Shown: positions 14,007-32,910, counted from the stretch's first letter. The stretch: DNA of 64,000 nucleotides from Longimicrobiales bacterium (GCA_965238005.1 OZ250165.1:2720001-2784000), one strand, 5' to 3'. Program-made: numbers and translations. The notes: a model not told the origin generated them from the sequence alone.

Positions 14007-14168
14007 TTCCTATATCCCGTATAAAGTATCGTATGACATGTACGGGAACATAGCGGACATACAGCGACTCTGTAACCCGGAGTGTAGTTATATAACTAAC
14101 TGCTATACTGAGAGTTATATAACCTTACCGGACACATATGGATTGTATTGGAATTTATGTACTGGAGA

Positions 14169-14889: not shown

Positions 14890-16168
14890 AGCCGGCCCTC
14901 CTCGCGGAGCCGCCAGTAGCCCGTGCTCCTCGGCAGGTAGTGGGGCTGCAGGTAGACCCGCCGGGCCGGAAGGGACTTCGTGCCGTCGTAGGGCAGGCAG
15001 ATCGCCTGATAGTTGGCGAGGAGCGTGAAGTCCCTCGGCGTGAACACCGGCTCCCGTGCCTGCCGGAACGACTTGCTCGCGCCGATCGTGCCCCGTCCGC
15101 CTCCGGCGCGTCCCGATAGCAGCGAGAACTCCGGCCTGCCCGTCGTCTCGGTGAACGTGTAGGACGGCTGCGTCTTCATGACGCTGCCGCACATCTCCGA
15201 TGCGATCCGGGCCGAGGACTCGTCGCTCAAGGACAGGAAGATCCGGGTGCGGAGCGTCTGGACCAGGGTGCGCCACGCGTCCGTGCCCGACAGCACGGAG
15301 CGGAGCGAGGAGATCGACTGCGTCGCGACGATCGGGATGCAGCGGCACTGCCGCGTCAAGGCGAACGCCTTCTCGTCGCCAGCGGGGTCGTCCTGGCCCA
15401 CGGTCGCGAACGCTTGGTACTCGTCGCAGATGAACACGGCGGGCCGGAGGTAGCGGCCGGGCCGGCGGGCGGCCTCGGCGGGCCGCCGGAGCAGCGCCTG
15501 CATCCAGGCGTTCTTGAGCAGCACGCCGATGGCGCGTCCGAGCGCCGGGTTCGCGCCGGCGGGCATGTTGAGGGCCAGGACCCTGCCCCCTTCGATCAGC
15601 TCGGCGAGCGGCGGCAGGCGGCGGCGAAGGCCCGGCATGGGCCGGACGGCCGCCGCATCCTCGTCCGGTGTCTCCTTATATAGATGTGTGGGCGCATCCG
15701 GATCCGGAGGCGGCGGACAGAACACGCTCGCGACCTGCGGCTGGTCGAAGAGCGAGAGGAAGACGGAGATGCCCTCGACGATCGAGGTGCGGAGCTTGGC
15801 ATCGAGCGCCATCCAATCGTTCAGGTACCAGCGCTCGATCGCCTCGACCTGGTCCTTGAGTTCGCTGCCTGCGCCGCTCTCGCCTTTCTCGGTCTCGAAC
15901 GGGATCTCGAACTCGGCGAGCCGATCCCGGAGGACCGGGTCGAGCCGGCACGTCACCGTGTCCTCACCGGAGGTATATATCCAGACCCAGTCATTCAGCG
16001 CTTCCGGATGGCCGATCATGTCGTCGTGGGAGATGACGACGCGCGCCGGGCACGCCTCAGCCACCAGGTCCTTGGCCTCGCGGATTCTCTCGGCGAATAG
16101 TTCCGCGTCGATCGTGCAGCGGTAGATGTCCTGCAGCGTGACCCAGCCCCCCGGCAGGAGCCGGTGCA
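14886..16168 (-). CDS. virD4: VirD4/TraD-like coupling protein, C-terminal part (split by E2)
   Basis: FICDEYQ Walker B, IVATQSISSL, SARIASEMCG. Confidence 0.88.
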
Positions 16169-16369
16169 ACCTATCTAAAAGGCTCGTAAGTCGTTGTGGG
16201 TATTACCTAATCGGTTTGCGCGTGTCTAACAGTGCCCCCAGAGTTGCCCCATAATCGCACCCGCATCCAGCGCTCGCCATCAGCGTCCATTGCGATCCAG
16301 CATAGCGGAGCCATCGTCTCGGCCCCGCGGGTGCCAGCTGGCCGGCGCGGCCGCCCCGCAGGGCAGCCT

Positions 16370-16700
16370 AGTAAGATCATGCTATATCATCCGAGGCAGC
16401 CCTACGGACTGCCTCGGACAGCTAAATAACTCATTTTATACAAACGAGTTATATATTTAGCGACGGTGCTCTGCCCCCCATTATTTCCACCGGGACGAAA
16501 CGGATTTCCTCGGCCCTTCGTGGCCGTGAACGGACGCGTCAGTCCGAATGCCACGCGGCCACGCGCCCAAGGCCGAGCGGCTGAGCGTGGGGTCGGTGAT
16601 GCTCCGATCCGTACCGCCTGTGCCCAACCGACCCGGCGTCACGCCGCCCAACCAGTGGGTAGCATCTCCGCCTGTTCGAGTACCGCCCGCATCGCCATCA
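16370..16700 (-). repeat. attP-like junction plus ~300-bp distal end of an E3-family element (inverted homolog of 46431-46729)
   Basis: Reverse complement reads ccgaggcagt-CCGTAGGG-ctgc, i.e. E3 right end + core + start of the E3 left end. Confidence 0.8.
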
Positions 16701-16701
16701 A

Positions 16702-17472
16702 TCACGATCCGGTCGTTGAGTTCGAAGTTACCCCCGCCGACGGGCAGATGGGTCCCATGTAGCATTCGCCGCACGCGGGTGCCCGCCTTGCGTGACACCA
16801 CGTGCGTCCGATCTGCCATGTTGGCCAGTCAAGCTCTCCGGGCCAATCCGGGTTGAGTTCGCGAGCGCGCAGCTGGAGCCCAATCTTCTGTTTCTCCGTG
16901 GTCGACCGTAGCTGGCTGTGTTCGAACCCTGGGAGAAGGTCCAGTCGCTTCCACACGCGTAGGACGTGAGTATCGACGGGAATGTCGGGCCTGGGCGTCG
17001 GGAGCTCGATGCCGAAGTCGCGGATCAGGATGTTCGCCGCCATGCTGGCAATCTTCGGACCCACACCGTCAAACTCCAGGAACCGTCTGGCGACTGCAAC
17101 ACCGCTGCTTCCGTTGGCCCAGATTCGTGCGGCGTCCCCGCCGTACCTGTCGCCGATAAGTCGGATGGCTGCGGGAAGTAATCGCTCCATGTCGGTGGCC
17201 AGCCGGTGGCCGGATGACGCGAGTACGGAGGACCAGACACTCCCCCGAAGCCCCGCTAGGGTCTCGAACTCGAAGTCCCCCGCGGCCTTACAAATCGCGT
17301 GTGGAAGGCTCCATGCGATATCGGCTTGCGTTTGACGGTCGGCGATGCACGCCAGCACGAACGCGTGCGGATAATGCTCAAGGTCGTTCACGAGGTCGCG
17401 CGCGGCGGGCTCGACGGTGATGCCGGAGACGCCACGCTCCTGCTCGAGCGAATCCTCACCGAACCGCTTCAA
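16702..17472 (-). CDS. HhH-GPD/endonuclease III-like DNA glycosylase with Fe-S motif
   Basis: FDGVGPKIASMA HhH, PVDTHVLRV, C-x6-C-x2-C-x5-C. Confidence 0.88.
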   Translation of the reverse strand: MKRFGEDSLEQERGVSGITVEPAARDLVNDLEHYPHAFVLACIADRQTQADIAWSLPHAICKAAGDFEFETLAGLRGSVWSSVLASSGHRLATDMERLLPAAIRLIGDRYGGDAARIWANGSSGVAVARRFLEFDGVGPKIASMAANILIRDFGIELPTPRPDIPVDTHVLRVWKRLDLLPGFEHSQLRSTTEKQKIGLQLRARELNPDWPGELDWPTWQIGRTWCHARRAPACGECYMGPICPSAGVTSNSTTGS

Positions 17473-17804
17473 ACATGAGACGATGCGGTTTATCTCTGCC
17501 AGATAGAATCCCCCCTCATGGCCCTAGTTGCCTCAACTTGGAACCAAGCAACTGGACCCGTCTGTCTTCACAGCGGTCGCTCTCGCCGAGGCGGAGAATC
17601 CCGAGCGCGTGGAGCTTGCAGGTGGCCGACCCGCAGACCGGGCCGACGAAACCGGCCAAGACCTCTGAGCTAAGCCGACTGCTGAGAATCAACGTACGGC
17701 CACGGGCCTTCGCATCAAAGCCGAACTCCCTTCGTGGACTACGACGGCCCCCATCCCTCGGCCCGGTCCTCTCCGTGCAACTTCCCGGCGGTGTTCAGCC
17801 GCAG

Positions 17805-17934
17805 CGCGGCGCTGGCACACAAAGGTCCGCAACCAGATCGAGGCAGCGTATCGGCGCACGGACCTGTTCGAGCGCCGACGGCGACTCATGGACGATTGGG
17901 CCGCGTACCTCGCCGGTGGAAGCCGCAAGCCATA
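17805..17934 (+). pseudogene. Integrase C-terminal remnant, followed by an oriT-like site
   Basis: VRNQIEAAYRRTDLFERRRRLMDDWAAYLAGGSRKP*. Confidence 0.85.
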
Positions 17935-17969
17935 GGTTGCAGCCCGCCGTCACGGCACCACAGGCGCAG

Positions 17970-18095
17970 GCTAAGGTGCGTAAGCCAGCCCACGCAATGT
18001 TAAACATTGCGAGCTGGCGAGGGGGGTGCTCCGCCCCCCCTTCGACCCCCCGAGGACCCGCGCTTCGGCGGATTTCGTGGGCGGGGGACTCCCCC
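17970..18095 (-). other. oriT-like site
   Basis: CTGGCTTA on the minus strand (17981-17988) next to hairpin cgcaatgt/acattgcg (17993-18011). Confidence 0.7.
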
Positions 18096-18226
18096 CGGCC
18101 ACGGGCCATACTCTCGCTCTGGCCCATGCTCGGACCGCAAGACGCCGTGGACCGTGGATGTAAGCGTTCGGCGGGGCCATGAGGATGGCGCCGGACTTGG
18201 CCCACAACGGGGCTCCCTGACGGGGC

Positions 18227-18346
18227 GCGCGAGGTCATCGAAGCAACCCTCGCGCATGTGGCCCAGAACAGAGTGGAGGCGGCCTACCGGTGCTCGGAGC
18301 TGCTCCAGCGCCGACGCAAGCTGATGGACGACTGGGCTGCCTGTTG
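18227..18346 (+). pseudogene. Second integrase C-terminal remnant
   Basis: REVIEATLAHVAQNRVEAAYRCSELLQRRRKLMDDWAA. Confidence 0.8.
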
Positions 18347-18383
18347 ATGCTGCCTATTTTTCACGATTGAACTGTGCCAAGCA

Positions 18384-19118
18384 TCACCGAGACGATGGGA
18401 GGCGTTTGCCCAACTTCCAGATGCCCCTAAGGTGCATCATGTCAACCATTGGATTATACTCGCGGCCAAGGTTCTCTACAAAGAGCTTTGCTTTTCTCTC
18501 ATCGAACCTGTCGAAATCGTCAGCATCAGCGAGGAATTCTGATATATACCGAACCGCGTGACTTGCCCTTTCGAGCATGACGATAAATCGGTTAGCGTAC
18601 ATTGGGTGAACGACTTCGTTCATCATATGTATACCGAGGCGCCGCAAATCGAATTTTTGGAGAACTTCGTATATCGCATCAGTGGCATCGGAGATGTCAT
18701 TGACTGATTGTGGACCGATTCCGGAGCCTTCTAGAGACTGCTTCTCGTCAGCATGAGCGATGGTCTTGTTTCTGGCGACACGAGCAGATTTCGTGGCTTC
18801 CTTTGCCTTTTTCAAGGCATTCTCGATATCCACACGTAGCTCATCATCGTCATCACAAAACTCCAACAACCGTTCCACACTGACATTTGTCTTGGATCCT
18901 GTCTTAGGAGGGTCCGTCAGTCGCGATAACCGCAGAATCAAGTCATCCCAGAGCCTTGGCCAAATGTAGAGGTGAAATAAATCGCCGCCAAAAGGGTCAA
19001 TCGTTTGTCGTGCATCTAGCTCGCTGAACAAGTCCTTGTAGCTGTCGAGCGACCATTTCAGAGTAGTCCAATCCTCCCACAGCTTCTCGTGTATCTCAGC
19101 AGCCTTCCCTTCAAGCAT
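18384..19118 (-). CDS. HEPN-domain (AbiU2-like) protein
   Basis: ILRLSRLTDP and RNKTIAH motif; lower GC than the flanks. Confidence 0.7.
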   Translation of the reverse strand: MLEGKAAEIHEKLWEDWTTLKWSLDSYKDLFSELDARQTIDPFGGDLFHLYIWPRLWDDLILRLSRLTDPPKTGSKTNVSVERLLEFCDDDDELRVDIENALKKAKEATKSARVARNKTIAHADEKQSLEGSGIGPQSVNDISDATDAIYEVLQKFDLRRLGIHMMNEVVHPMYANRFIVMLERASHAVRYISEFLADADDFDRFDERKAKLFVENLGREYNPMVDMMHLRGIWKLGKRLPSSR

Positions 19119-19595
19119 GATCGTCGTTCCGTTCGCCCGAGCCCCGCTGATCGTCTGCCTCTACTGCCCGCGGTGCGCCAGCTTGGGCGACGCCAAGGCC
19201 AGCAAGCGCCCCGATGACGTTCTGGTGCGGATCGTGCCGGAAGCGGTTCAGCGTTCGCACGGATTCGGTCTTGGAGCAGACGCGGCTGCCCCTGCGTAAG
19301 TGGGTGATCGCCATCTACCTTTACACGACCAACCTTAAGGGCGTGTCGAGCATGAACCTCCACCGCGACCTGGACATCACCCAGAAGTACGCGTGGTTCA
19401 TGCTTCACCGCATCCGCAAGGCGTGGGGCGGCCAGTCGGCCAGCTTCTCCGGGCCGGTCGAGGTTGACGAAACCTACATCGGCGGGAAAGAGAAGAACAA
19501 GCACTCATCGAAGCGGCTTCGGGCTGGCCGTGGCGCGGTCGGGAAAACGGCGGTCGTCGGAGTCAAGGACCGCGAGACCAACAAGGTCGCGGTCG
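19119..19595 (+). pseudogene. IS1595-family transposase fragment
   Basis: Zn-ribbon CPRC/CGSC, KGVSSMNLHRDL, VEVDETYIGG. Confidence 0.9.
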
Positions 19596-19900
19596 GCTTG
19601 CCATATCCGTTGCGGTAGCCCTCGGCCGAGTCCACCGTACTCCTGCGCTCTGACCTCTCCCGGCCTAACAACTCCGTGACTTCCTCCTCCATGATCTGTT
19701 GGATGAACTCCTGCGCCTTCTCCCTAACCATCCCCTCGAGCGTCTCCCACATCGGCCTGCTGGACGCACCCTGGGGTCCCGCGATATCCTCTCTCATGAG
19801 GCGACGTTCCTTTCCCCGGGCTGTCACCCGGGCTCGCTGGTTTAAATCTCAGCGCAAAGGTGCGTCGCCTCTCTTTTTACACACCCTTTGATCCTAGCTC
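19596..19900 (-). pseudogene. IS256-family left end and transposase N-terminal fragment
   Basis: EEEVTELLGRERSER...GYRNGYGKP; terminal IR gagctaggatcaaagggtgtgtaaa starting at 19900. Confidence 0.85.
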
Positions 19901-19918
19901 GGAGCTGGAGGGGTTGGA

Positions 19919-20749
19919 GTGAGCGACGCGTCGAACATGGACGCCCCCTCAGGCTCTGACATAGTCCTTCAGGCCAAGGCCCTACCCCACCGGTCACCAC
20001 GAGAGCAGGCCCAGGCCCTAGTCGCCCTAATCCCCTACGTCGGCGGTGCAGTATCGGCGTACTGGGCGGGTAAGGACCTTGAGAGAGTCGTGGAGCGTAT
20101 CGAGCAGTTCGTGGGGGAGACCAGTGCTCGCATACGGCGCCTGGAAGCCCATGACAATCTCGATAAGGGCTTTCTTGAGACCGAGGAAGCGGCCGAATTT
20201 GTTATTGAGGTGACGAATACGGTCACCTTGGAGCGCGACTCCGAGAAACGGAATCTCTACGCGACCATCCTCGCAAATACCGCTCGACGGGATATCAACC
20301 GTTCGTTTTACCCGACGGCCCTGAAGCTGCTCGACGCGCTGGCACCCATTCATATAGAACTCTTGCGCGAACTCTTGCGGCGGAGAGAGAAGCATGAGAA
20401 AGGTGGGGGAGAGCATCATACCAGCACGAGGGAACTAGCGATCAAACTCCACCTTCAGGATCTGGAACAACTACGGTTGGCCGGACTGTCGGATGAAATT
20501 CCCCACGTCTTTTCCGAGAAGCCGGATGGTGTCCGTGGCTGGGACGCAGCGTTGGGAGCGGCCGACAACATCGGTGGCCCAGGCGCCGAAGCCTTGAAAG
20601 ACAAGTTTCGACAGTGGGACGATGACATCTTGGCGCACCTCCAATACATGGGGAAAGAGGGGTTGGTAGAACAGGTGTCCGAGAGACGAAGCAGCATCAC
20701 CCAGCTGAGTGTCCGACTGTTGGAGTGGCTATCGGAACCCGAGGGCTGA
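19919..20749 (+). CDS. Hypothetical protein, possibly Abi-alpha/DUF4393-like
   Basis: IPYVGG N-terminus, EKRNLYATILAN, C-terminal wHTH-like tail. Confidence 0.6.
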   Translation: MSDASNMDAPSGSDIVLQAKALPHRSPREQAQALVALIPYVGGAVSAYWAGKDLERVVERIEQFVGETSARIRRLEAHDNLDKGFLETEEAAEFVIEVTNTVTLERDSEKRNLYATILANTARRDINRSFYPTALKLLDALAPIHIELLRELLRRREKHEKGGGEHHTSTRELAIKLHLQDLEQLRLAGLSDEIPHVFSEKPDGVRGWDAALGAADNIGGPGAEALKDKFRQWDDDILAHLQYMGKEGLVEQVSERRSSITQLSVRLLEWLSEPEG

Positions 20750-20767
20750 CCCACCAACCGTCCCCGC

Positions 20768-21487
20768 TCAAGACTCTTTGCCCTCGTCTGTCTCGGGAGC
20801 GGCTGGGGCCATCTCCATAATCCTCTTTCCGATGGCCTTGAGCGACTCATCGGTCAACGACGGCCCTGTGCCAAGTGTCGACGTGCTCGTGTCCGCTGCG
20901 CCCACCAGGGAGTTAGGGGCTTGGTCGGGGAGCGGTCCTCTCCACGCGATGTACTCACGACCCTTTGGCGTCACCTCAATCAGGCCATCCCCCATCAGGA
21001 CCAAGTGGTGCCCTGCCAGCGCAGCGAGTATCGCGTTTCGCTCATTCGCACTGGGAATGAAGGCGTGAAGATCGGAGTCGAGGAGTCGCAGGGCGATTGG
21101 ACCGGCGGAAGAAGCTATGTGGTCCAGAACCAGTTGAGTCGCACGGACCAAGTAGCGATTTAGGTAGCGGTACTCCCACAGGTATGTCGCTGCCCGCTCT
21201 GACCGAATTGCTTCCCTCAGTCGATCGGCCTCTGCCCCACTGACGTCGGGTGGTAGCTCGACGTCGCCTTCTGGTACCTCGGGGGCGTCCTTGGTATCAG
21301 TTGGTGGGGCCTGTCGAGGAAGGGCGATCTCGCCCCCTCCTGGGAAACGGATCCTCGCAATCCGCCCGATTAGGGAACGCACCTCTTTCTTGAACAGAAC
21401 GAGCACAACCGTGCCGAGCAGGCCCACAAGAGGCGGCCAGCTTAGAAGGACCTCGAGATACGCGAGGACGATCTGGTGCACTTCCAT
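20768..21487 (-). CDS. Hypothetical membrane-anchored protein with a wHTH-like domain
   Basis: N-terminal TM LSWPPLVGLLGTVVLVLF; IEVTPKGREY; GGAGG RBS. Confidence 0.75.
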   Translation of the reverse strand: MEVHQIVLAYLEVLLSWPPLVGLLGTVVLVLFKKEVRSLIGRIARIRFPGGGEIALPRQAPPTDTKDAPEVPEGDVELPPDVSGAEADRLREAIRSERAATYLWEYRYLNRYLVRATQLVLDHIASSAGPIALRLLDSDLHAFIPSANERNAILAALAGHHLVLMGDGLIEVTPKGREYIAWRGPLPDQAPNSLVGAADTSTSTLGTGPSLTDESLKAIGKRIMEMAPAAPETDEGKES

Positions 21488-21613
21488 CTGCCCTACCTCC
21501 TCCGTTGGGTGCCTGGCGAGAAAGATCGTCTGATGCGAGGGGCTGGACCAGCGTCGTCCATCCCGTGGGTCGTAGAACGAATTAACTAGACACGCTCCAC
21601 CACGTCGGCGATC

Positions 21614-21740
21614 GAGGTTGGGTCAATAGGTGTGTAAACGTATCAGGCGGCATTCTTCCGCTGTTGTGTTGAGACGGGCTTTCCGTCTTCGAACTTCCTT
21701 CCTTCAAACACGTCCTTGAGGAGGTGAGGAGCGCTCGATC
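21614..21740 (-). pseudogene. IS256-family transposase C-terminus and right IR
   Basis: APHLLKDVFEGRKFEDGKPV...AA*; IR gaggttgggtcaataggtgtgtaaa matches the IR at 19900 at 20/25 positions. Confidence 0.75.
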
Positions 21741-21885
21741 TGAGCGCGGGTCATGAGCCGTTCACGGTTATCCAGCGTCAACCGGGCGTTTGCGGCAGCG
21801 AAGCCACTCGGGTCGGTCGGAGGATCATGCCATCCATCTCACTGGGGGTCTTGTGGGAAAGTCTTACAAAATGTAAGATAGGATC

Positions 21886-22179
21886 ATGGACGAGATTCCG
21901 AAGTTGTCGAAGAAGGAGGCGGTCATCCTCCACCTCCTTGTGAACCAGGGCAGCATGTATGGCCTGGAGATGATCCGTGTGAGCGACGAATTGAAGCGCG
22001 GCACTGTCTATGTGACTCTGGGCCGGATGGCGGAAAAGGGCTACGTCGAGTCCAACCTGGAGGACGCACCGGAGGGCGGAGTCGCTCGGAGAGTCTATCA
22101 GGCCACCGGACACGGCAAGCGCGTCCTTAGCTTTTGGGAGCGAATGCGGTCGCTCGCCCCCTCCTTGAGCACGGCATGA
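21886..22179 (+). CDS. PadR-family transcriptional regulator
   Basis: MYGLEM, GTVYVTLGRMAEKGYVES, RRVYQATGHG. Confidence 0.9.
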   Translation: MDEIPKLSKKEAVILHLLVNQGSMYGLEMIRVSDELKRGTVYVTLGRMAEKGYVESNLEDAPEGGVARRVYQATGHGKRVLSFWERMRSLAPSLSTA

Positions 22180-22982
22180 ACGGCTTCCACGACACCTCCG
22201 GGCTCCTTCGTCAGATAGAGGCTCTGAGGACCGCGATGGAGAGCATTCGTCGAACGCAGAAAGCGCTGGAATGCTCTCCCGTGCTGGAAGGAGTCCGAAG
22301 AGCGCAGGAGGCGCTGGACAACTCCCAGCTGTCCGAGAGCATTCGCCGGACGCAGAAGGCGCTCGACTGTTCTCCCATGCTGGAAGGAATCCGAAGAGCG
22401 CAGGAGGCCTTGGACAACTCCCAGCTGTTCGAGAGCATTCGCCGGACGCAGAAGGCGCTCGACTGCTCTCCGATGCTGGAAGGAATCCGAAGAACGCAGG
22501 AGGCCCTTGGCAATTCAAGCCTGGCCCTTCATAGAGTCATCCGCCAGATGGCGAAGGCAAACGCTCTGGACTTCCGCGTTGGACATACCGGGACCCGCCT
22601 GGCTGCTCACGTAACTGAGGCTAAAGTGACGAGAGAAAAGGCGCAGGGGCGCGATCTGCGTGGTCGGCGACTAAGAAAAGCCGGGCAAACCGCTACGAAC
22701 TGGCTCGTGCGGTTGGCGAGTCGCCGAAAAGTCCAACGGCCGGTTGGTTCCTCGCTGCGCGGCGTCGCCGAGTTCGTTTTCTCCAAGAAGTCTTGCGAGC
22801 AAATCTACGACCCGCTAATCAATGACTTGCGGTTTGAGTATTTCGAGGCCTTGGCTTCGAACCGCAGGTGGAAGGCACGGTGGGTGCACGCGCGGGGATA
22901 CGGTAGCTTCTTGACAGCTGTGTTAGCCCACGCTGCTGCGTCGGGCGGTCATCTTGTTGTTCGGGTATGGCGAATCTTCTAG
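22176..22982 (+). CDS. PadR-coupled hypothetical protein with three 32-aa helical repeats
   Basis: ATGA overlap with padR; 96-bp units starting at 22241, 22337 and 22433. Confidence 0.75.
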   Translation: MNGFHDTSGLLRQIEALRTAMESIRRTQKALECSPVLEGVRRAQEALDNSQLSESIRRTQKALDCSPMLEGIRRAQEALDNSQLFESIRRTQKALDCSPMLEGIRRTQEALGNSSLALHRVIRQMAKANALDFRVGHTGTRLAAHVTEAKVTREKAQGRDLRGRRLRKAGQTATNWLVRLASRRKVQRPVGSSLRGVAEFVFSKKSCEQIYDPLINDLRFEYFEALASNRRWKARWVHARGYGSFLTAVLAHAAASGGHLVVRVWRIF

Positions 22983-23205
22983 GCGGCCGGATAGAGGTAG
23001 GAGTACGGTAATCGCCTGAAACCCGGCCTCACCGAAGTGAGGGTCTACTCGGCTGGTTGCCGCCCGCGGACCGAGGACCAGTGGTTTTCTTTGGCCCTGC
23101 ACGGTGAGCGTAGCGCGCCGGGACGGTGGAGGTCGCCCACACCACGACCTTCTGCCGATCAGCTACAGGTGCGCGGTGCCGACGCGGACGATTCGCCCAA
23201 TTCCT

Positions 23206-25782
23206 TCACAATGTCCCCCGAAACAGCATCTCGTTCAGCCGCGCCTGCCACTCGTCCTCATCCACGACCTCGAAGCGCAGCACCTTGCTTCGCATCGCGG
23301 GCGCGAACTCGGCCCAATCGGCCTTGCGGGCGTGCTCGCTGCAGATGTCGAAGACGGACCGCTTGTATTCGGTATCCTCAGACGCCTTCAGGTGAACACC
23401 CTTGGTTTCGACCACGAACACCTGGTGGAAGCCGTCGTCCGCCCCGGGCTCGTCGCTCTGCAGTGTCACGATGAAGTCGGCGTAGATCCGGCGCGGCTTC
23501 CATCCCTGCACGTAATAGTCCTTGCGGGCGCGGTTGCGGTACCAGAAGAACAGCCGCGCCTGCTGGTCCAGGTAGGTCGCGACCTTGTTCTCGAACTGGT
23601 TGAGATCGTCCTCCGTGGTAACGTCGAAGAGGTTGCGCTGGTAGGGACTGCCGTCCTCTCGGTTCGCCTGCTTCGCCTTCGGGCCCTCGATCTTCTCGGG
23701 CAGGCGACCGAATTCAAGATCCTCTGCGACGACCAGAAAACGCATCCTTCCCGACTCTAGGAGGGCACGGAAGACCTCGCGCGACAGGCGGTCGCGCTCC
23801 ATCTCGACCTGTCGGCGCAGCTCTTCAAGGACGAACACATGATTGGCCGCCACCCGCTTGGTTGGGTAACGCTTGAGCAGGACCTCGAAGGTGCGTCGGG
23901 CGAGATCGCGGCCCCACCACGGGTTGGGAACCAGGTCCAGGAGGTGGCTGGCCGCGAAAAAGTAGTCCACGGGATCGCCGCCGTTACCCGAGTCGGCGGC
24001 GGGGGGGGCTTCGACGTTTCCGGGATCACCGCCGTTCGGGACGCCCGGCTCCACAACACGTTCCTCGGTCAGGTTCGCCCGGAGCAGGTCATCTCCCCCT
24101 CGCCCCTCGTCCAGCGTCAGATCGTCCAGCGCGGAGAGGTCGATGTCGTCCCAAGGCAACCGCGAAAGGATGTCCGCCTCGTAATGGACCAGACGCCAGC
24201 CGTCCACATCCCGGATCATGAACGCGGGAAAGACGAGATCACGCGCCGCCGCTCTATACGGCGTGCGCTGCCGGGTCGCCAGCTTCTCCGTTGGGCGCGT
24301 CGGGCCGCCATCGGATACCACCCTCCCTTCGAGGCCCTGCAACCCCTCCAACCCGAACCCCTTCCTGACCTCTTTCAGCAGTTCGTTTCCCCGGCGGCTG
24401 AAGCAGAAGACGTAGCTCTCGTCAAGCAGGGGCACTCCCGTCTTGCACGCGTAGGGCTGCCGCAGGATCCGGCCCACCAACTGGGTGATCCCCGTTTTCG
24501 ACATCGGGTTGGTGAGGATAGTGAGGACGTAGGCGAACGGGCAGTCCCAGCCCTCCTGCAACGCTTGTTTGGTGATGATGAAGCGGATCGGACAGTCGCG
24601 GGACATCAGGCCACCAACGTCGTCCACCTCCTTGAGTTCGTCCTTCACGCTAGTCTTGACCGCAATGTGCTCCGGAGCGATTCCCGGGTGCTGGAGCAGG
24701 TACTCGCGCACATCATCGGTGTGCACGTACCCGGGCTTCCTCTGCTCCTTGCCGGTCCGCTCCACCTGGATTACGCAGATGGGACGGATGTAGGTCCCGG
24801 ACTCGGCTTCACGAAGCCGCGCCTCGGCCTCGAGAGTTTCGCGGTGTTCGACCGACTCCAGCAGCGTGCCGCGCCAGTCACCGCTCGCCTTGTTACGGAT
24901 GTGCAGGTCGAGCTTGATCATCTCCTCAGCGTTGAGTTCCCGGCCCAGGATCTCGACGAGCACGTTGGCAGCGTTGGCCGGAGTGGCCGAAAGCTCGACG
25001 ATCATGCAGGGGTTGAACCCTTCGAGCGTTGCCTTCGCGTTGACGCTGTAGGCCTTGTGTCCCTCGTCGAGGATAATCAGCGGTCGCAGCAGCCGCACGG
25101 TGTTCCCGAGGGATGTCTTGATGTAGCGGCCCCAGAACCCCGTCGTTTGCTCGAAGGTGTCCAGATTGGGGTGTTCCTCAAGCAGTTTGGCGTGCGCGGC
25201 GGGATCGTCGTCCGGGGGGAAGAACCTGTCGAAGCCGCCGCTGTCGCGGAACATCCGGAGCGTATCCTTCGTCCGCCGGTTAGCCGACGGGAGCATGAGC
25301 AGGAGGATGCATAGGTTCTCGGCGACATCGCGCGGGCCGAACGCCATAGTCTTCTCGAAGATGCGCGTGCGCTGACCCGAAGAAAGGTCGAGCTGCTGCC
25401 GGTACGGGTGGTCGCGGTCCTTGAGCGCCCTGAGCGTCTGGTTGTAGATCTGCGTCGTGGGCACGATCCACAGCACCAGGCCGCGCCGGCTCTGCCGGAA
25501 TTGCGCGTTGACGAGATCGATCACCCGCGTCGCGAGCAGCGTCTTGCCGCCGCCGGTCGGGATCTTGAGGCAGAAGGCGGGAAGCTGCTCGCCGAGTCCG
25601 TTGCGGCGGGGGTGGTAGGGCCGCCCGGCCACGGTCTTGCCCCAAGCCCGCTGCACCCAGTCGAACCGCCATTCGGAGTCCTGGCTTCGCGCCGCCGCGT
25701 CCTTCTCCCGCCACACCGCAAGCTGTTCGAGGAAGCTGCGGACCGTCGCCAGCGTCTGCTTCTGGTATTCCTTCAGGATCAT
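23206..25782 (-). CDS. res: Type III restriction enzyme Res subunit
   Basis: PTGGGKT, DEGH, LQEGWD, QLVGRILR, C-terminal YADF...VETKG nuclease. Confidence 0.92.
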   Translation of the reverse strand: MILKEYQKQTLATVRSFLEQLAVWREKDAAARSQDSEWRFDWVQRAWGKTVAGRPYHPRRNGLGEQLPAFCLKIPTGGGKTLLATRVIDLVNAQFRQSRRGLVLWIVPTTQIYNQTLRALKDRDHPYRQQLDLSSGQRTRIFEKTMAFGPRDVAENLCILLLMLPSANRRTKDTLRMFRDSGGFDRFFPPDDDPAAHAKLLEEHPNLDTFEQTTGFWGRYIKTSLGNTVRLLRPLIILDEGHKAYSVNAKATLEGFNPCMIVELSATPANAANVLVEILGRELNAEEMIKLDLHIRNKASGDWRGTLLESVEHRETLEAEARLREAESGTYIRPICVIQVERTGKEQRKPGYVHTDDVREYLLQHPGIAPEHIAVKTSVKDELKEVDDVGGLMSRDCPIRFIITKQALQEGWDCPFAYVLTILTNPMSKTGITQLVGRILRQPYACKTGVPLLDESYVFCFSRRGNELLKEVRKGFGLEGLQGLEGRVVSDGGPTRPTEKLATRQRTPYRAAARDLVFPAFMIRDVDGWRLVHYEADILSRLPWDDIDLSALDDLTLDEGRGGDDLLRANLTEERVVEPGVPNGGDPGNVEAPPAADSGNGGDPVDYFFAASHLLDLVPNPWWGRDLARRTFEVLLKRYPTKRVAANHVFVLEELRRQVEMERDRLSREVFRALLESGRMRFLVVAEDLEFGRLPEKIEGPKAKQANREDGSPYQRNLFDVTTEDDLNQFENKVATYLDQQARLFFWYRNRARKDYYVQGWKPRRIYADFIVTLQSDEPGADDGFHQVFVVETKGVHLKASEDTEYKRSVFDICSEHARKADWAEFAPAMRSKVLRFEVVDEDEWQARLNEMLFRGTL

Positions 25783-27398
25783 TGTTCCAGCCTATCGATC
25801 GCTTCGTAGATCTGGAAGGGGAGCTGCTGGAAGTCGATCCGGTACTTGTGAAGGAACTCGCGATCGAGGTACTTGGTGGGCGCGAAGACGAGCTTCCTTC
25901 TCGATCCGGAGGGCAGGGTGCGGGCCATTGGCAACGAAAGCGCGAGATTCTTGAGCTTGTCGACATCGGGCTCGTAGAAGAGGAAGACATCGTGGGACGC
26001 GGTGCGCCCGACGAATCCGGTGTCAAAGTTGGTCTCGGTCGGGTCGAACTCCTGTCCGGTCGCCGTGAAGAAGATGTAGGAGGCCAGTTTCTCCCACGAC
26101 GGCAGGTGGGAGCCGTCGAGGAGCGACTCCTGGCGCATGGGGCGCCCAAGCTCGAAGTAGCTGAAGGTGCCGCCGAGGCCGGCCTTGAGGGCATCGTCCC
26201 TGGCGCTCGGAACCCCTTGAATGACGCGCCGAACGCGCTCGGCGGTGATGGTGTTGGCGTAGTCCTCGCACTCGACGAGGATGAAGCGCCGGTTGCCGCC
26301 GTCTTCCCGGTTTTGGGCGAGAACGGCGTGGGCCGTGGTGCCCGAACCGGCGAAGGAATCTAGGATGATCGAGTCGGGGTCGGTGGACAGGAGTACCATC
26401 CGCTGGATGAGCTCGAAGGGCTTGGTGGTGAAGCCGGGCAGCTCTTCCGGGAAGAGCTGTAGCAGCGTCTTCTTCGCACCCTGTGTGTGGTTGACTTCCT
26501 TGTAAGTCCAGATTGTCTCCGGGACCAATCCCGGCTGCACCTCGGACAGAAACCGTTTGATGGCGGGAACCTGGTTCTCGTCGCTACCCCAGAAGATCTG
26601 GTTGTCCTTGTCCAGTTCCCGGAAGCTGTCCTCCGAGACGGACCAGAATCGTCCAGCCGGGGGGCCATCGATGACCCGCCCCCCCGGACACCTAATCGCG
26701 TAGGTGCCCTTGCTATAGGGATTGCGTGCAGAAAGATCGCTGGACTTCCAAGATCCGCGTGGATCGTCATCCGGGTTCCCATAGCGTGCGTCGGCCTCCT
26801 TCGTCCGCGGAAGCAAGTTTCTCTTGAACAACTCCCTTCGTTTCGCGTACACGACCACGAAGTCGTGGTTTTCTGAGAAGTACTTCGCGCTGCTCTTCGG
26901 AGAGTACACTTTCTCCCAAATGATGGTCGCCACAAAGTTCTCCTCCCCGAACACCTCGTCCATCAGACAGCGCAGATGGTGCACCTCGTTGTCGTCGATG
27001 GACACGAAGATCGCCCCGTCCTCCCGGAGCAGTTCGCGGAGCAGCTTCAAGCGCGGCATCAACATGCAGCACCACTTGTCGTGCCGGGTCAGGTCATCGC
27101 GGTCCACCACCCGGCCCAGCCAGTCCCGCATGAGGGGCGAATTCACGTTGTCGTTGTACGCCCAGCCCTCGTTGCCCGTGTTGTAGGGCGGATCGATGTA
27201 GACGCACTTTACCTTTCCGTGATAGGTCGGCAGCAGAGACTTCAGCGCGGCCAAGTTGTCGCCGTGGACGATCAGGTTGTCGTGGAGGCTCGCCTTCTCG
27301 CTCAGCCCGTTCTCTCGCGCCGGCAGCAGCTCGTGGAAGGGTACGGCCAGGTGATGGTTCTCTACGAATACCTTCCCCTTGAAGTGGAGCCGTGGCAA
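25779..27398 (-). CDS. mod: Type III R-M methyltransferase Mod
   Basis: GDNL, IDPPY, ISIDDNE-like VSIDDNE, LDSFAGSGTT; ATGA overlap with res. Confidence 0.93.
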   Translation of the reverse strand: MPRLHFKGKVFVENHHLAVPFHELLPARENGLSEKASLHDNLIVHGDNLAALKSLLPTYHGKVKCVYIDPPYNTGNEGWAYNDNVNSPLMRDWLGRVVDRDDLTRHDKWCCMLMPRLKLLRELLREDGAIFVSIDDNEVHHLRCLMDEVFGEENFVATIIWEKVYSPKSSAKYFSENHDFVVVYAKRRELFKRNLLPRTKEADARYGNPDDDPRGSWKSSDLSARNPYSKGTYAIRCPGGRVIDGPPAGRFWSVSEDSFRELDKDNQIFWGSDENQVPAIKRFLSEVQPGLVPETIWTYKEVNHTQGAKKTLLQLFPEELPGFTTKPFELIQRMVLLSTDPDSIILDSFAGSGTTAHAVLAQNREDGGNRRFILVECEDYANTITAERVRRVIQGVPSARDDALKAGLGGTFSYFELGRPMRQESLLDGSHLPSWEKLASYIFFTATGQEFDPTETNFDTGFVGRTASHDVFLFYEPDVDKLKNLALSLPMARTLPSGSRRKLVFAPTKYLDREFLHKYRIDFQQLPFQIYEAIDRLEQ

Positions 27399-27736
27399 GG
27401 AGCCCTCCTTTGGCGCGTCCAGAGTGTCTCAAGCGCTCCGCCCGCTAGCATCGGACGGATGTTCACCCCCCAAAACTAATGCCTCATGCCCCGGCCGCGC
27501 AGGTCACGCGGCGGTCGTCCGCAGCCGATCCCGTGCCCGTTCCGCCTGCCTCTAGGCCCGGTCGCGTTCGATCCCCCGGCGTCATCTCTGTTGAACCCTG
27601 CGGGGGCGTTTGCCGTGCCGCTGGCGGCGGTGTCCAACAGCCCCTGTACCGTACTGAACGTCTCTGAACGCCACAGGCATTTAGGAGGTTTTCTACGGGT
27701 TGACTTCCTTGCAAACGGCTCCTCACCGTTAGGGGC

Positions 27737-28711
27737 ATGGAGACGCGGAAGCAGCAGTTCAACTCGGCGGCGAGCGATGCGATCGTCCACCTCCAGGGAC
27801 GCGAACAGGCGCTCGCGCCATTCGGCTGGACGGGAGAAAAGGCCGGGTGGATCGCGTTCGTCTGCCTCCACAGCGGCGCGTTCACCCGCGCCCAGTGCGC
27901 GCGGTTCCTTGAAGCGCACCCCGAACAGGTGCGGCGCGTCGTCCACGCCCTGATCGCGCAGGGCCTGGCCGCCGAGGAGACCGTGCCCGACGTCCGCGGG
28001 ATCGGCCGCGTGTGCCGGATCCATGCACGGAGCCTCTATCGCGCGCTCGGAGCCGAGCACATCCGCCACCGCCGCGACGCCTCTCCAGAGGTGCTCATGC
28101 GGCGCCTGCTCTCGCTCGACTACGTCATCGATCATCCCGGCCTGCCGTGGCTTGCCACCGAAGCCGAGAAGGTCGCCGCGTTCGAGGCCCTCGACATCGA
28201 CCGGGGGCTGCTGCCCGTCAGGGTGTACCGGGGAGCCGCCAGCACCGCGCGGCGCTACTTCCCGGTCAAGCTGCCGGTCGCGCTGGACGCCGAGCGCGCC
28301 GTCTTCGTCTACGCCGATCCCGGCCACGATACCGCGACCGCGCTCCGCTCCTGGGGCGTGGCGCACCGCCAACTCTGGTACGCGCTCCGGAGACAAGGCA
28401 GGTCAGTTGAGGTCGTCGTCGCCGCGCGCACGCATCGGGAGATGGAGCGGGCGCGGCAGGTCATGCGAGGCTGGGCCAGGCCTTCCGGCCACGCCGAACC
28501 CGCCCCCGAGGTCCGTGAGGAACTCGACCGGATCGAGCGGGCCATTCTCGAGGGCGCGGTCCAGATCCTCGAAGAGTTCGGCGGCCTCCAGGCCGCCATG
28601 AAGCGCAGCGTCGCGCTCACGAAACAGGCACGGCGACAGGCCGTCCACGGATCGATCCGCCGGGGCAGCACATGGCGGACCGCGCGCCTCGCCGGGGCTC
28701 GCTACCGATGA
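27737..28711 (+). CDS. ICE-backbone wHTH/Rep-like hypothetical protein (paralog of 47010-47945), carried inside E2
   Basis: VCLHSGAFTRAQ, IRHRR, RRLLSLDYV, RYFPVKLPVA shared with the paralog. Confidence 0.75.
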   Translation: METRKQQFNSAASDAIVHLQGREQALAPFGWTGEKAGWIAFVCLHSGAFTRAQCARFLEAHPEQVRRVVHALIAQGLAAEETVPDVRGIGRVCRIHARSLYRALGAEHIRHRRDASPEVLMRRLLSLDYVIDHPGLPWLATEAEKVAAFEALDIDRGLLPVRVYRGAASTARRYFPVKLPVALDAERAVFVYADPGHDTATALRSWGVAHRQLWYALRRQGRSVEVVVAARTHREMERARQVMRGWARPSGHAEPAPEVREELDRIERAILEGAVQILEEFGGLQAAMKRSVALTKQARRQAVHGSIRRGSTWRTARLAGARYR

Positions 28712-29027
28712 GCGGGGCGCGACTTACGGCCGGACTGGAGTGCGCAAACGACGTGGGGGTGCGATTCACACTTTGGCCCTCCGGCGATTCACAGGGGCCT
28801 TCCCGCGTATCCACTGGCGGGGCCGTGTCTTGCGCATCCGTGGCCCGGACGGCCGGCGCCGCGCGGGCCGCACCGGCCGTGGCGGGAGCGACCCCCCCTT
28901 CGGGATGCCTGGTACGGCATCGGGGAGGGTTGACATGTGCACGCACCTGCCACCCCTCCCCGGCGGGGTCGCTCCCGGCCAGATATCCCTCCGGGAAGGG
29001 TTTTCAACGCCGCTGCCAGGCGGCGGA

Positions 29028-30410
29028 TCACCCAGTTCGCCGACCGTCCAGCCGGTGTGTCGGCGCTACCGCGAAGGACCCGGGCGGGGAGCTGGGGACA
29101 GGGCCGACCGTGGGAGGCACGGCTCCAGCTACCGGGAACGGCGGGCCGTGAGTTGGTGTTCCGGGATCCCCGGCGACGTTGGTATTTCGGAAAGCCCCGG
29201 TTCCGTGAGTCGCCTCGATCTCTTCCCCGGCTCTGAGCCGGTCCAGATAGTCGGCCCAGGCCTGCATCATCACGCGGCGCTCGGGCAGGAACGCCGTCCG
29301 GTTGTAGGCCCGGCCGTTGGGGTCCCTGACCCGGTGGGCCAGCTGGTGCTCGATGAAGTCGGGCCGGAAGCCCAGCACCTCGTCCAAGATGGTGCGCGCC
29401 ATCGCCCGGAAGCCATGCGGCGTCATCCGTTCCGGAGGGATGTCCAAGGCCCGGAACGCCCCCCAAAAGGTGGTGTTGCTCATCGTCCGGTCGCGTTGCC
29501 GATAGCGCGCATTCGGGAACACGTAGCGGTGGTGCCCCGTCACGGGATGCAACTCGCGAAGGATCTCGACCGCCTGACGCGCCAGTGGGACCACATGCGG
29601 CGTGTCGGTCTTGGTCGCCGTGTAGCGCCACTCGGCTCCATCGAGGTCGATGTCGGCCCATTCGGCCTTGCGCAACTCGCCGGGCCGCACGAAGAGCAGC
29701 GGCACCAGACGCAGCGCGCACCGCACCGGCAGCGTGCCCGGGTAGCCGTCCAGGAGCCGGAGAAGCGGGCCGACCTCCTTCGGGTCGGTGATCGCCGGGA
29801 AGTGCTTCCGCTTCACCGGAGGGAAGGCTCCGCGCAGGTCCCCCGACACGTCCCGCTCCGCTCGGCCCGTTGCCACCGCATAGCGCAGCACCCGCCCACA
29901 GACCTGAAGCGTGCGATGCGCCGTGTCCAGGGTGCCGCGGGCTTCGATGCGGCGCAGCGCGGCCAGCAGCTCCGGTGCCGTGAGCTCCGCGACCGGCTTC
30001 TCTCCGATCCACGGGAAGACATCCTTACCCAGATCGCGCTCGAGTCGCCGAGCGTAGCTCGCGCACCAGTTCGGCGAGTGCTTGGCGAGCCATTCAGCGG
30101 CCACGGCCTCGAAGCTGTTCCTGGCCCATTGCCGCTTCGACTGCTTCTGCGCCTTCCGGTAGGCGCTCGGGTCGATGTCCCGGGCCAGCAGCTTGCGGGA
30201 ATCGTCGCGCCGCTCGCGGGCGAGCTTCAGCGAGACCTCGGGATAGATGCCCATCGAGATGCGCTTCTCCTTCTCGGCGAAACGGTACTTGAAGCGCCAG
30301 GCCTTGGTGCCGCGCGGGGCGATCTCGAGGTACAGGCCGCGGCTGTCGTAGAGCTTGCGCGGCTTGTCGCGGGGCTTGGCCTTTCGGATGGCGGTGTCGG
30401 TCAGCGGCAT
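29028..30410 (-). CDS. int: P4-like integrase of E2
   Basis: MPLTDTAIRKAKP, DSRGLYL, FVRPGELR, HGFRAMART, QLAH, AYNR. Confidence 0.95.
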   Translation of the reverse strand: MPLTDTAIRKAKPRDKPRKLYDSRGLYLEIAPRGTKAWRFKYRFAEKEKRISMGIYPEVSLKLARERRDDSRKLLARDIDPSAYRKAQKQSKRQWARNSFEAVAAEWLAKHSPNWCASYARRLERDLGKDVFPWIGEKPVAELTAPELLAALRRIEARGTLDTAHRTLQVCGRVLRYAVATGRAERDVSGDLRGAFPPVKRKHFPAITDPKEVGPLLRLLDGYPGTLPVRCALRLVPLLFVRPGELRKAEWADIDLDGAEWRYTATKTDTPHVVPLARQAVEILRELHPVTGHHRYVFPNARYRQRDRTMSNTTFWGAFRALDIPPERMTPHGFRAMARTILDEVLGFRPDFIEHQLAHRVRDPNGRAYNRTAFLPERRVMMQAWADYLDRLRAGEEIEATHGTGAFRNTNVAGDPGTPTHGPPFPVAGAVPPTVGPVPSSPPGSFAVAPTHRLDGRRTG

Positions 30411-30579
30411 GTTGGGGCACCGGTTGAGGTTTCAGGAATATGCCCCAAAACATGCCCCAGAAAAGTCGTGGCTGTCAAGGGGTGGCACTGGATGTTCCGG
30501 AGTATGAGAAATCTCCCAACTCATTATATATCACTGTTTATGTGTACACTAAGGAGCATTACTGCACGTCAATGGATGC

Positions 30580-31342
30580 GCCGGTGCAGTTCGACGATCC
30601 AGCGCACGAGATTCGTATAGGCTTGCTGCCAGAACGGTTCGCGGCTCTTGCCGAAGAGCTGGTTGATCAGGGAGGCGACGCTGTAGGCGAGCGAGTAGGT
30701 ATCGAGGAGGGGATCGTCGAGCGGGTTCCACTGCCAGGCGCCGTCGAGCCCGATCTCCACGTAGTCGTCCCCGCGCCCGGCGTCCCCGAGGATCCGGCGC
30801 ACCGCGTGGCAGAAGTCGCCCTTGACCTCGAGCACCAAGGCGCTGGCCCGGCGTGCGGGCCGGTCGGCCTGCCACGAGAGGAGCTGCTGGGCGAACGGAT
30901 ACATGCAGGCCGAGGTCTTGCCGGAGCCGACGGCGCCGACGATCAGGATGCCGGTGTAGAGCCCCGTCTCGGGAACGACGAGCCAGGAGGGCCGCTCGCT
31001 CTCGCGCGGGACGACGGGATGGTGGAGCTCGCCGATCACCAGCGATGGTGTCTCGTCCTCGGGCGAGGCGGGCCAGGGTGGCAACGTGCCCCGGCGCCCT
31101 CCTCCCGCTCGTGGCTGGAGCCAGACTCTCCAGACCGAGAGGCCGAGGCTGCCGAAGAGCACCACGGCGACGGCGGGCGCCACGTAGTACCAGACGCGGA
31201 TCACCGTGTGGAAGCCCGGATCGTGGTAGGCGATGAGGTCGAGCACGGGATTACCGCCGCTGGCGGGAAACGGCGCCCAGAAGGCGTGGGCGATCGCGGC
31301 CGCGGCGGCGGCGCCAGCCAGGATCAGCGCGGGCCGCCTCAT
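30580..31342 (-). CDS. virD4: VirD4/TraD-like coupling protein, N-terminal part
   Basis: Two TM segments, GAVGSGKT Walker A, LEVKGD, WNPL; ends WIVELHR at the core. Confidence 0.88.
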
Positions 31343-31528
31343 CGCTGTGACAACCTTCCCGTAGGGCTGCATGGTAGGATATTACCATTATGTCCAGCCA
31401 AGGCCCGTAACGCACATAACTGACGTGTTTATATTGACCTATAACGATACATGAGGATATGTCCTGTCCCATGCCGCTCCGCTCCATCCCCTTGCATCCA
31501 CCATATGATGGTGGATATATTGGCGGGT

Positions 31529-32752: not shown

Positions 32753-32779
32753 GGCGCTGGCTCATGACCGGTTACCTGT

Positions 32780-32910
32780 CATGAGCCAGCATACCCTTTG
32801 TACCCACAAAGGGGCTGGCGAGGGGGGCGCTCCGCCCCCCCTTCGATCCCCCTGAGGCCCGCGCTCCGGCAGAGTTCACGGGCAGGGAGCGAGCCCCCCC
32901 GAACCCCCCT
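32780..32910 (-). other. oriT-like site (variant CTGGCTCA) downstream of the E3 integrase
   Basis: tgagccag at 32782-32789; hairpin ccctttgt/acaaaggg at 32794-32813; same GC-rich tail as the other copies. Confidence 0.6.

Follow-up and report, generated by a model that had tools for sequence, protein, structure and literature searches.

Elements lodged inside traG, the VirD4 gene carried by integrative and conjugative elements (ICEs) related to Tn5252 and Tn1549, are described for Firmicutes, namely streptococci and clostridia, where Tn6104, IME_Sco1050_traG_site1, IME_Sco1050_traG_site2 and dICE_SanC238_traG employ serine recombinases, singly or as triplets, and have repeats of 2-8 bp (PMC5704250, PMC4701971). 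The same reports describe IME_oriT of Streptococcus agalactiae, which uses a tyrosine integrase to insert in the origin of transfer (oriT) of ICEs related to Tn916 and ICESt3 (PMC5704250), and give the comK prophage of Listeria as a case of a regulatory switch (PMC4701971). Here we describe E2, a 14.4 kb segment that interrupts a virD4-type gene in a stretch of 64,000 nucleotides from a Longimicrobiales bacterium (GCA_965238005.1, OZ250165.1:2720001-2784000). The whole stretch is referred to as the window and positions are counted from its first letter; the genome is a single contig of 4.84 Mb (C1) in which the window is C1:2720001-2784000.

In our judgement E2 is probably an integrative genomic island with an integrase of the CP4/P4 type, a cargo of defence genes and an attachment site at virD4 codon ~264. 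P4 and CP4-57 are the names by which we take this type of integrase to be known. Its host, a bacterium of the Longimicrobiales (Gemmatimonadota), has relatives among genomes seen in sponge metagenomes, and the best-listed DNA runs are labelled sponge metagenome.

An exact insertion within virD4

E2 occupies positions 16169-30579 and is bounded by two copies of the 9-bp core GCCGGTGCA, a sequence found on the plus strand at those two places only across the whole window. The insertion measures 14,411 nt plus one duplicated core. Duplication of the 9-mer is not significant by itself, two or more copies being reached in 33 of 100 shuffles. The interrupted gene, on the minus strand, is of the VirD4/TrwB coupling-protein type and is broken after codon ~264. 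Its open reading frame (ORF), read from 31372, runs to the junction as ...NLVRWIVELHR, followed by three foreign codons and a stop, and minus-strand translation of 30500-31450 accordingly ends in ...NLVRWIVELHRRIH before that stop. On the other side of E2 the frame emerging at 16159 reads LLPGGWVTLQDIYRC..., while minus-strand translation of 14883-16172 starts RLHRLLPGGWVTLQDIYRC... and has 427 codons open until the stop at 14886. The N-terminal fragment is 78-93% identical to the N-terminal parts of paralogs in the genome, and the C-terminal fragment is 77-85% identical to paralogs of full length and, in the case of partial copies, up to 97%.

The genome contains about a dozen copies or pieces of virD4, and these provide the decisive control. 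Four other copies are uninterrupted at codon 264, three of them full-length, and read ...TGGATCGTCGAA CTGCACCGG CTCCTGCCGGGG..., that is N-flank, one core and C-flank. Queries made from the N- and C-fragments overlap by exactly 9 nt on the uninterrupted paralogs, where CTGCACCGG joins the flanks with nothing between. Since the paralogs read gap-free from one flank through a single core to the other, E2 is an exact insertion within virD4. The first-pass annotation, made from the sequence alone, had proposed that E2 splits virD4 with a 9-bp core and that WIVELHR joins LLPGGWVTLQD. Both statements hold: the minus-strand frames are open at the two junctions and continuous in the uninterrupted paralogs.

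Domain matches identify the product of the target gene as a divergent coupling protein of type IV secretion (VirD4/TraG/TrwB). An intact paralog (L013:718-2784) scores 39.3 bits against TrwB_AAD_bind in Pfam (cut-off 20.5) and 32.3 bits against TraG-D_C (cut-off 22), and the C-fragment itself matches TraG-D_C at 1.9e-07 and TrwB_AAD_bind at 7.6e-05. The N-fragment contains a Walker A-like GAVGSGKT and has a weak VirD4-like match in NCBIfam, and a gene for a VirB11/TrbB-like ATPase follows virD4 directly. The target thus has the characters of the family, namely above-threshold matches to its domains, a membrane region at the N terminus and a Walker A NTPase; comparison of the coupling protein with solved structures gave no sequence match, which makes it a divergent member.

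An artefact of assembly, in the form of a chimeric join among repeated copies of the conjugative element, is extremely unlikely to have produced the junctions. The backbone is indeed multi-copy and far deeper than the cargo in metagenome contigs, which is the situation where assemblers err, but both junctions with the same core recur in the independent assemblies G001, G002 and G005, the arm repeats at the two ends match and contigs from other runs match the E2 cargo without mismatches. Public runs were compared as contigs. Across window positions 14000-32500, contigs of runs X9-X12 are tens to hundreds of times deeper in the backbone than in the E2 cargo, which marks the family of conjugative elements as abundant there and present in many copies.

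The integrase and its target

The E2 integrase has a three-domain architecture (arm-binding, core-binding and catalytic), with Pfam matches that all lie above cut-offs (Arm-DNA-bind_3, 1.7e-26; Phage_int_M, 3.5e-35; Phage_integrase, 5e-15). Its domains match PDB entries 3ju0, 3jtz and 2kj8, with the titles 'CP4-like integrase' and 'Putative prophage CPS-53 integrase', and the NCBIfam domain model PRK09692 matches at 7.6e-73, under its curated cut-off. In an alignment of 103 integrases the columns of R242, H332, R335 (H-x-x-R), H359 and Y369 are 99-100% conserved; we presume their catalytic roles from general knowledge of the family, the catalytic Lys not having been located. The ratio of non-synonymous to synonymous substitution rates (dN/dS) is 0.13-0.33, and 0.19-0.25 among the integrases that are 98.1-99.1% identical between genomes. 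The integrase gene is intact and under purifying selection.

Paired arm-like TGCCCC repeats were reported at both ends of E2 by the first-pass annotation, and the pattern TGCCCC-N(4-10)-TGCCCC does occur only twice in the 64 kb, once in each arm and both times on the plus strand (Table 1), where 0.16 occurrences are expected and two were reached in one of 100 shuffles. In the integrase-proximal arm the inverted GGGGCA, at 30414-30419, abuts the integrase start codon, a conserved TTGACAGCC box lies on the minus strand at ~30471-30479, and the core is 169 nt before the integrase start. This layout, box included, is kept in all 13 E2-type loci and in 16 of 18 listed loci, among them an outgroup that targets tRNA-Leu (L068); the exceptions are a tmRNA outgroup (L047) that has GGGGTA and one locus (L051) without the TTGACAGCC box. 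The distal arm is 91-93% conserved at the same junction in G002:C12 and G005:C14. We propose that the integrase would have recombined a circular island with the corresponding 9 bp of virD4, the attP of this circle consisting of TGCACCGGC with one arm on either side. Scans of the gap between the virD4 fragment and the integrase found neither a sigma-70 promoter, a consensus that may not apply to this phylum, nor an intrinsic terminator.

The choice of target sets E2 apart from the wider family. A scan of one genome per species yielded 79 loci, the close relatives being titled Longimicrobiales metagenome-assembled genomes. Integrases less than 75% identical to that of E2, from Proteobacteria, Acidobacteriota and others, account for 62 loci, in 52 of which a same-strand tRNA or tmRNA gene lies just upstream, a median of 174 nt before the integrase start (four have none and six a short flank). 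The relatives with this habit are 43-71% identical to the E2 integrase and belong to other phyla. At identities of 75% or more there are 17 loci, none with a tRNA or tmRNA gene upstream (15 have none and two a short flank). As the core lies 169 nt before the integrase start in E2, against the median of 174 nt, the geometry has been kept and the partner changed. The flanks of E2 are the two virD4 halves, unlike the tRNA/tmRNA 3' ends habitual in the family, whose use does not define membership of the protein in it; ARAGORN finds no tRNA or tmRNA anywhere in the window, and comparison by eye of the virD4 site with tRNA/tmRNA 3' ends gave no convincing register.

The sister genomes G001 and G002 contain five other loci (L027, L028, L030, L031 and L032) whose integrases are 88-99% identical to that of E2 at the nucleotide level. 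At each of them the same arm follows a virD4 fragment whose last residue is 264, and the core reads TGCACCGGC, TGTACCGGC or TACACCGGC; matching C-fragment junctions are present in G002:C12, G005:C14 and G001:C2. The sharing of one junction by all five, together with the finding that none of the 15 clade members with enough flank is near a tRNA or tmRNA gene, makes virD4 codon 264 the primary site of this integrase subclade. The first-pass annotation had looked to close homologs at tRNA/tmRNA genes as the mark of a secondary site, but that habit is seen only in the more distant relatives. A secondary-site accident of an island normally resident at a tRNA or tmRNA gene, which the prevalence of such targets in the wider family (52 of 62 loci) might bring to mind, is accordingly very unlikely.

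Targeting of tRNA/tmRNA genes nevertheless appears ancestral in the wider family, the E2-type clade being nested among integrases with such targets in trees of both 103 and 99 rows. Specificities within the Longimicrobiales clade are varied: virD4 codon 264; codon 11 of virD4, where the orientation is opposite (L034); site C, which lies in the backbone ~3.4 kb past virD4; the 5' end of virB6/trbL; and several sites flanked by chromosomal-looking genes. Across the clade the arm-binding domain is 86-98% identical to that of E2, whereas members with other targets have 69-86% identity in the core-binding domain, the pattern to be expected if the latter domain sets the core. A conserved arm-binding domain and a core-binding domain that has diverged most are consistent with our proposal that the subclade switched its core specificity, from tRNA/tmRNA genes to the virD4 site.

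Two further elements, E1 and E3, interrupt the same backbone, and the first-pass annotation held that their integrase type differs clearly from the MPLTDTAIRK type of E2 and that independent lineages had converged on one operon. The first part is borne out by identities of 31-33% between the E2 integrase and the three other integrases of the window; E1/E3-type and E2 integrases are 25-34% identical in every domain. On the second, sampling mattered. A first tree (103 rows, quick search, LG+G4) placed a 23-row Longimicrobiales clade inside the tRNA/tmRNA integrases, with a long branch separating off the genome's 21 other integrases, yet an approximately unbiased (AU) test on it, run without E3 relatives, did not reject a single common clade (p 0.365). 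Relatives of the E3 integrase were then added from metagenome contigs. Those of at least 56% identity have no tRNA nearby, two of them abutting the virD4 start; at 37-49% identity eight lie just after tRNA-Ser or tRNA-Phe, and many others have no tRNA or short flanks. In the resulting tree, of 99 rows, the E1/E3 clade takes up 32 rows and has as its sister a group that includes three integrases adjacent to tRNA-Ser (support 99); it lies far from the superclade of E2. With this fuller sampling the AU test rejects a single clade (log-likelihood difference 398, p-AU 3e-64), the group tested being partly defined after seeing a tree and both trees being quick searches. Independent descent of the E2 and E1/E3 integrases that use this operon is thereby supported, in agreement with the earlier proposal.

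Interior, mobility and host element

Features of E2 and its surroundings are collected in Table 1. Two adjacent genes, overlapping by 4 nt, give E2 a complete type III restriction-modification (R-M) system, since Mod and Res are both full length. The HEPN AbiU2-like protein had no match in the PADLOC scan. The three tandem repeats downstream of the PadR-family regulator are 81-89% identical to each other, and the stretch containing regulator and repeat ORF (21802-23065) has a counterpart of 92-96% identity at C1:666033-667491, next to a truncated integrase of E2 type. A PHROGs scan of the 18 ORFs of E2 returned integrase, methyltransferase, helicase and transposase-like families only; a prophage or phage satellite was considered and rejected, phage structural, packaging and replication genes being absent from the same scan.

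Table 1. Positions of E2, its target gene and the surrounding conjugative backbone (window coordinates unless prefixed C1)
Feature	Position	Strand	Details
Right 9-bp core copy	30580-30588		GCCGGTGCA; gene-strand reading TGCACCGGC
Left 9-bp core copy	16160-16168
virD4-like N-terminal fragment	30581-31372	minus	codons 1-264 plus three element-encoded codons; stop at 30569
Coupling-protein C-terminal fragment	14886-16159	minus	codons ~265-689; free of stops and frameshifts
Uninterrupted virD4 paralogs	C1:694208-696274, 841032-843098, 4832976-4835039		689 codons
E2 integrase	29028-30410	minus	460 aa; CP4/P4-type tyrosine recombinase; starts MPLTDTAIRK
Integrase-proximal arm	30411-30579		169 nt; two direct TGCCCC (30441-30458), inverted GGGGCA, TTGACAGCC box
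Integrase-distal arm	16169-16395		two direct TGCCCC (16233-16250)
Type III R-M methyltransferase (Mod)	25779-27398	minus	539 aa; Pfam N6_N4_Mtase 2.5e-39; PADLOC MTase_III 4.6e-170, residues 1-531
Type III restriction enzyme (Res)	23206-25782	minus	858 aa; Pfam ResIII; PADLOC REase_III 7.2e-165, residues 37-847
HEPN AbiU2-like protein	18384-19118	minus	244 aa; Pfam HEPN_AbiU2 1.5e-12
PadR-family regulator	21886-22179	plus	within 21886-22982
ORF with tandem repeats	22134-22982	plus	282 aa; three tandem 96-nt repeats (22239-22526)
Transposase fragments	19214-19618, 19474-19827		IS1595 and Mutator-like, respectively; within 19214-21741
Two relic 3' fragments of E1/E3-type integrase genes	17806-18342		blastn to 3' ends of many such genes; direct repeat
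Segment resembling far end of E3-type elements	16396-16699		88% to window 46430-46729
Diverged conjugative-element backbone copy	27597-29030	plus	abuts integrase 3' end
Backbone (this and following rows in gene orientation)	48358-46722
E3	46721-31375
Backbone	31374-30580
E2	30579-16169
Backbone	16168-14169
E1	14168-7926
Backbone	7925-6348
Insertion sequence (IS)	6347-4741
Backbone	4740-3589

The interior also contains pieces of other elements. Ends of a repeated element (19594-19900 and 21614-21738) recur at no fewer than seven places in the genome. Their spacing at those places is ~950 nt, against 1.7 kb in E2, where the sequence enclosed is a different one. The backbone copy next to the integrase comprises the gene that normally precedes virD4 (ORF 27737-28711, 324 aa) and then the first virD4 codons; in blastn it matches C1:777802-779239 at 93% and several copies of the backbone at 70-75%. 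In other backbone copies the homologues of this segment and of that at 16396-16699 are contiguous, the upstream gene and virD4 start being followed by the E3-type far end, and in E2 the integrase-attP module lies between the two in circular permutation. E2 is therefore a mosaic whose integrase-attP module occupies the place of an E3-type junction.

The 324-aa protein belongs to a family with 1190 matches at E<=1e-5, for which the few sources naming a match say Gemmatimonadota or Candidatus Palauibacter. VIA-align returned only MarR-like winged helices (Z 8-9, residues 6-134), Foldseek found no match in the PDB at E<=0.001, Pfam found nothing at E<=0.001 on 25 members of the family, and the ESM Atlas gave only a weak lead (Replic_Relax, score 0.84). 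The models thus suggest an N-terminal winged helix as the sole recognisable domain. The proteins of ~310-324 aa that precede virD4 in this conjugative element (window 47010-48071 and 27737-28711) form one family, without a Pfam family; two 532-aa forms bear a VirB8 domain.

Comparison of sister genomes bears on whether E2 is mobile. E2-type integrases occur in four of 61 related genomes and the coupling protein in five; the integrases are present in four of those five and in none of the other 56, which supports a dependence of E2-type integrases on the presence of the conjugative element. An island of ~23 kb in G002:C12 has the same ends as E2 and unrelated cargo (McrBC, a MazF toxin, a 1564-aa helicase-nuclease and a transposase). 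Between genomes the integrase genes are 98.1-99.1% identical, compared with 86.8-90.0% for the 220 nt of virD4 beside the core; the element is therefore younger than the host copies, and its integrations recent and repeated.

Several observations weigh against the integrative-island reading. A search of 45 small ORFs (45-84 aa) recognised neither an excisionase nor any other recombination directionality factor, and not one of them has a Pfam match at E<=0.01. No relaxase family appears among the E2 ORFs in Pfam, NCBIfam and PHROGs scans and no oriT was recognised in E2, the tools used being unable to recognise one. Five other virD4 copies in the genome have an empty site with a matching core, so that spread within the cell is evidently not efficient. 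The backbone copy that holds E2 is broken by E1, E3 and an IS as well, and repair of virD4 alone would therefore not revive it. A mosaic of integrase fragments, IS debris and a backbone piece may indicate that E2 is decaying. Finally, all four of the runs have metagenome contigs in which 16159 is followed directly by 30580, so that exactly 14,420 nt are passed over, but their shorter side is only 25-37 nt; they may come from intact paralogs and show neither excision nor its absence.

An immobile relic, in which an old insertion became fixed in a decaying backbone copy and was passed on vertically or by regional duplication, would accommodate the dead integrase pieces and IS fragments of the interior, the want of a recognised excisionase and the battered host backbone, as well as two remains elsewhere in the genome: a relic of the distal arm, representing a decayed second E2-type left junction (C1:493042-493292), and a truncated E2-type integrase (C1:665016-665966). 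It accords poorly with a full-length integrase under purifying selection in which all identified catalytic residues are conserved, with virD4 halves free of stops, with integrases 98-99% identical between species-level genomes whose neighbouring target DNA is only 87-90% identical, and with the different cargo between the same ends in G002. We consider the relic improbable and retain the integrative island as the preferred reading. A fragment of 129 nt (49918-50046), 97% identical to part of the E2 integrase gene and situated in or beside a NikA/MobC-like ORF (49736-50260), is probably a relic of another E2-type element.

The insertions into the backbone were mapped by laying the window against a less interrupted copy (C1:869035-880000), and integrase flanks were placed on the uninterrupted copy at C1:694208. 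The virD4-virB11 segment proves to have five sites, each with its own integrase type and at least four besides that of E2: virD4 codon 2 (E3 type), codon ~190, codon 264 (E2) and codon ~511, and virB11 codon ~238 (E1 type). E3 is inserted at the second codon of the same virD4 as E2, with an integrase at 31451-32752 on the plus strand. Its cargo consists of a GmrSD-like nuclease (32772-33914), a type I R-M system (37843-42903), a weak HEPN match (42907-43644) and a DUF5131 protein (44357-45217). E1, with a 395-aa integrase on the minus strand (12819-14006), interrupts the gene for the VirB11/TrbB-like ATPase, which lies downstream of virD4: ORF 14155-15348 ends at position 248 of the 308 in the profile, and homology to the backbone picks up at 7925. 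The IS, with a DDE_Tnp_1 transposase (4830-6152), sits in the backbone between an ArdC-like gene and the next gene. Elsewhere on C1 of this genome (G000), virD4 copies are split at codon ~511, with integrases at 875063, 708725 and 329244, and at codon ~190, with an integrase at 739260; the copies concerned span 870658-876918, 701317-710574, 328555-330404 and 739260-741193. Isolated N- and C-fragments of virD4 lie far apart in the genome, which suggests rearrangements between islands.

Such clustering raises the question of whether insertion is selected for its effect on the conjugative element, either as a reversible conjugation lock, an intervening element comparable to skin in sigK or to the comK prophage, or as a means, encoded by host or island, of disarming incoming elements. 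The split keeps the reading frame and could in principle be reversed. Integrase and virD4 share one orientation, the former lying 169 nt downstream of the fragment with nothing resembling a terminator in the gap, so that transcription of the operon could reach the integrase. Five distinct sites of two integrase lineages fall in the virD4-virB11 segment, and relatives of the E2 integrase have inserted at codon 11 of virD4, at the virB6/trbL 5' end and at one more site in the backbone. Co-orientation is, however, ancestral, the tRNA/tmRNA genes of 52 loci being on the same strand; there is no sign of regulated excision; some members of the clade use sites with chromosomal-looking flanks; and a conserved, dispensable target accounts for the pattern without any selected effect on conjugation. 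We assign this explanation a low probability.

A broader version, tentative and to our minds rather doubtful, would make the conjugation operon of this multi-copy element, in these Longimicrobiales associated with sponge metagenomes, a dedicated landing pad for a guild of defence islands, with insertions acting as reversible conjugation locks and at least two independently retargeted lineages split into site-specific 'species'. Its sites would be virD4 codons 2, 11, 190, 264 and 511, virB11 codon 238, the virB6 5' end and a further backbone site. Were it correct, such islands would immobilise, ride on or disarm conjugative elements, and transfer would resume only after every lock had excised.

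Under the integrative-island reading that we prefer, a conserved, dispensable, multi-copy gene that arrives horizontally would offer the island a safe landing site, and the island would bring with it the type III R-M and AbiU2 defences. The coupling protein would be knocked out while E2 is integrated, and precise excision would restore the virD4 reading frame because both halves are intact. As to biological role, the insertion may provide a safe harbour, allow hitch-hiking on the conjugative element or act as a conjugation lock.

Relation to known systems

E2 offers a natural example of a tyrosine integrase clade that appears to have changed its target, from the 3' end of tRNA/tmRNA genes to several protein-coding sites, and the retargeting series, in which arm domain and repeats are kept while the core-binding domain diverges, is material for decoding core specificity. 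It also indicates that defence islands can attach within transfer genes that are essential to conjugative elements, in a phylum whose mobile DNA has received little study. Regulated excision, if it occurs, would put conjugation in these bacteria under the control of several nested elements. In practice, a split transfer gene in a genome of this kind calls for a check for islands before it is scored as decayed.

The CP4/P4-type islands at tRNA/tmRNA genes (outgroup loci L047-L117) resemble E2 in their integration apparatus. They share with it a three-domain integrase (43-71% identical), GGGGCA-type arm repeats upstream of the integrase, a core ~165-180 nt before the integrase start and co-orientation of integrase and target gene. 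The difference is in the outcome, a protein-coding target being disrupted by E2 whereas the classical tRNA/tmRNA 3' end is regenerated by the element.

The skin element in sigK is an intervening element. As with such elements and with switch prophages, the gene entered by E2 is split with its halves intact, and precise excision would rebuild the frame. E2 differs in showing no sign of regulated excision and in that the interrupted gene belongs to another mobile element and not to the host.

IME_oriT, as its report presents it, is likewise a tyrosine-recombinase element attached at a conserved part of an ICE conjugation module. There, though, the target is the nic site of oriT and not a gene, and the element is small and mobilisable and not a defence island.

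The Firmicute traG elements, in the accounts cited above, are similar to E2 in using internal sites of the coupling-protein gene of another conjugative element, with more than one site per gene, and their authors too propose that excision could restore the gene. E2 departs from them in its phylum, Gemmatimonadota, in its tyrosine integrase with arm sites, the sole recombinase at its ends and thus no serine recombinase, and in having no recognised mobilisation gene, where some of the Firmicute elements carry genes for replication or mobilisation. Insertion into traG/VirD4 is therefore already known, in the serine-recombinase cases of Firmicutes. Word searches of the open-access literature turned up neither a tyrosine-integrase island described from a coupling-protein gene nor an account of elements of this kind from Gemmatimonadota, which is not proof that none has been published. 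Within those searches, what appears to be new is the phylum, the clustering in one operon of at least five sites from two lineages, and the residence in virD4 of a CP4/P4-type integrase clade derived from tRNA/tmRNA-targeting ancestors.

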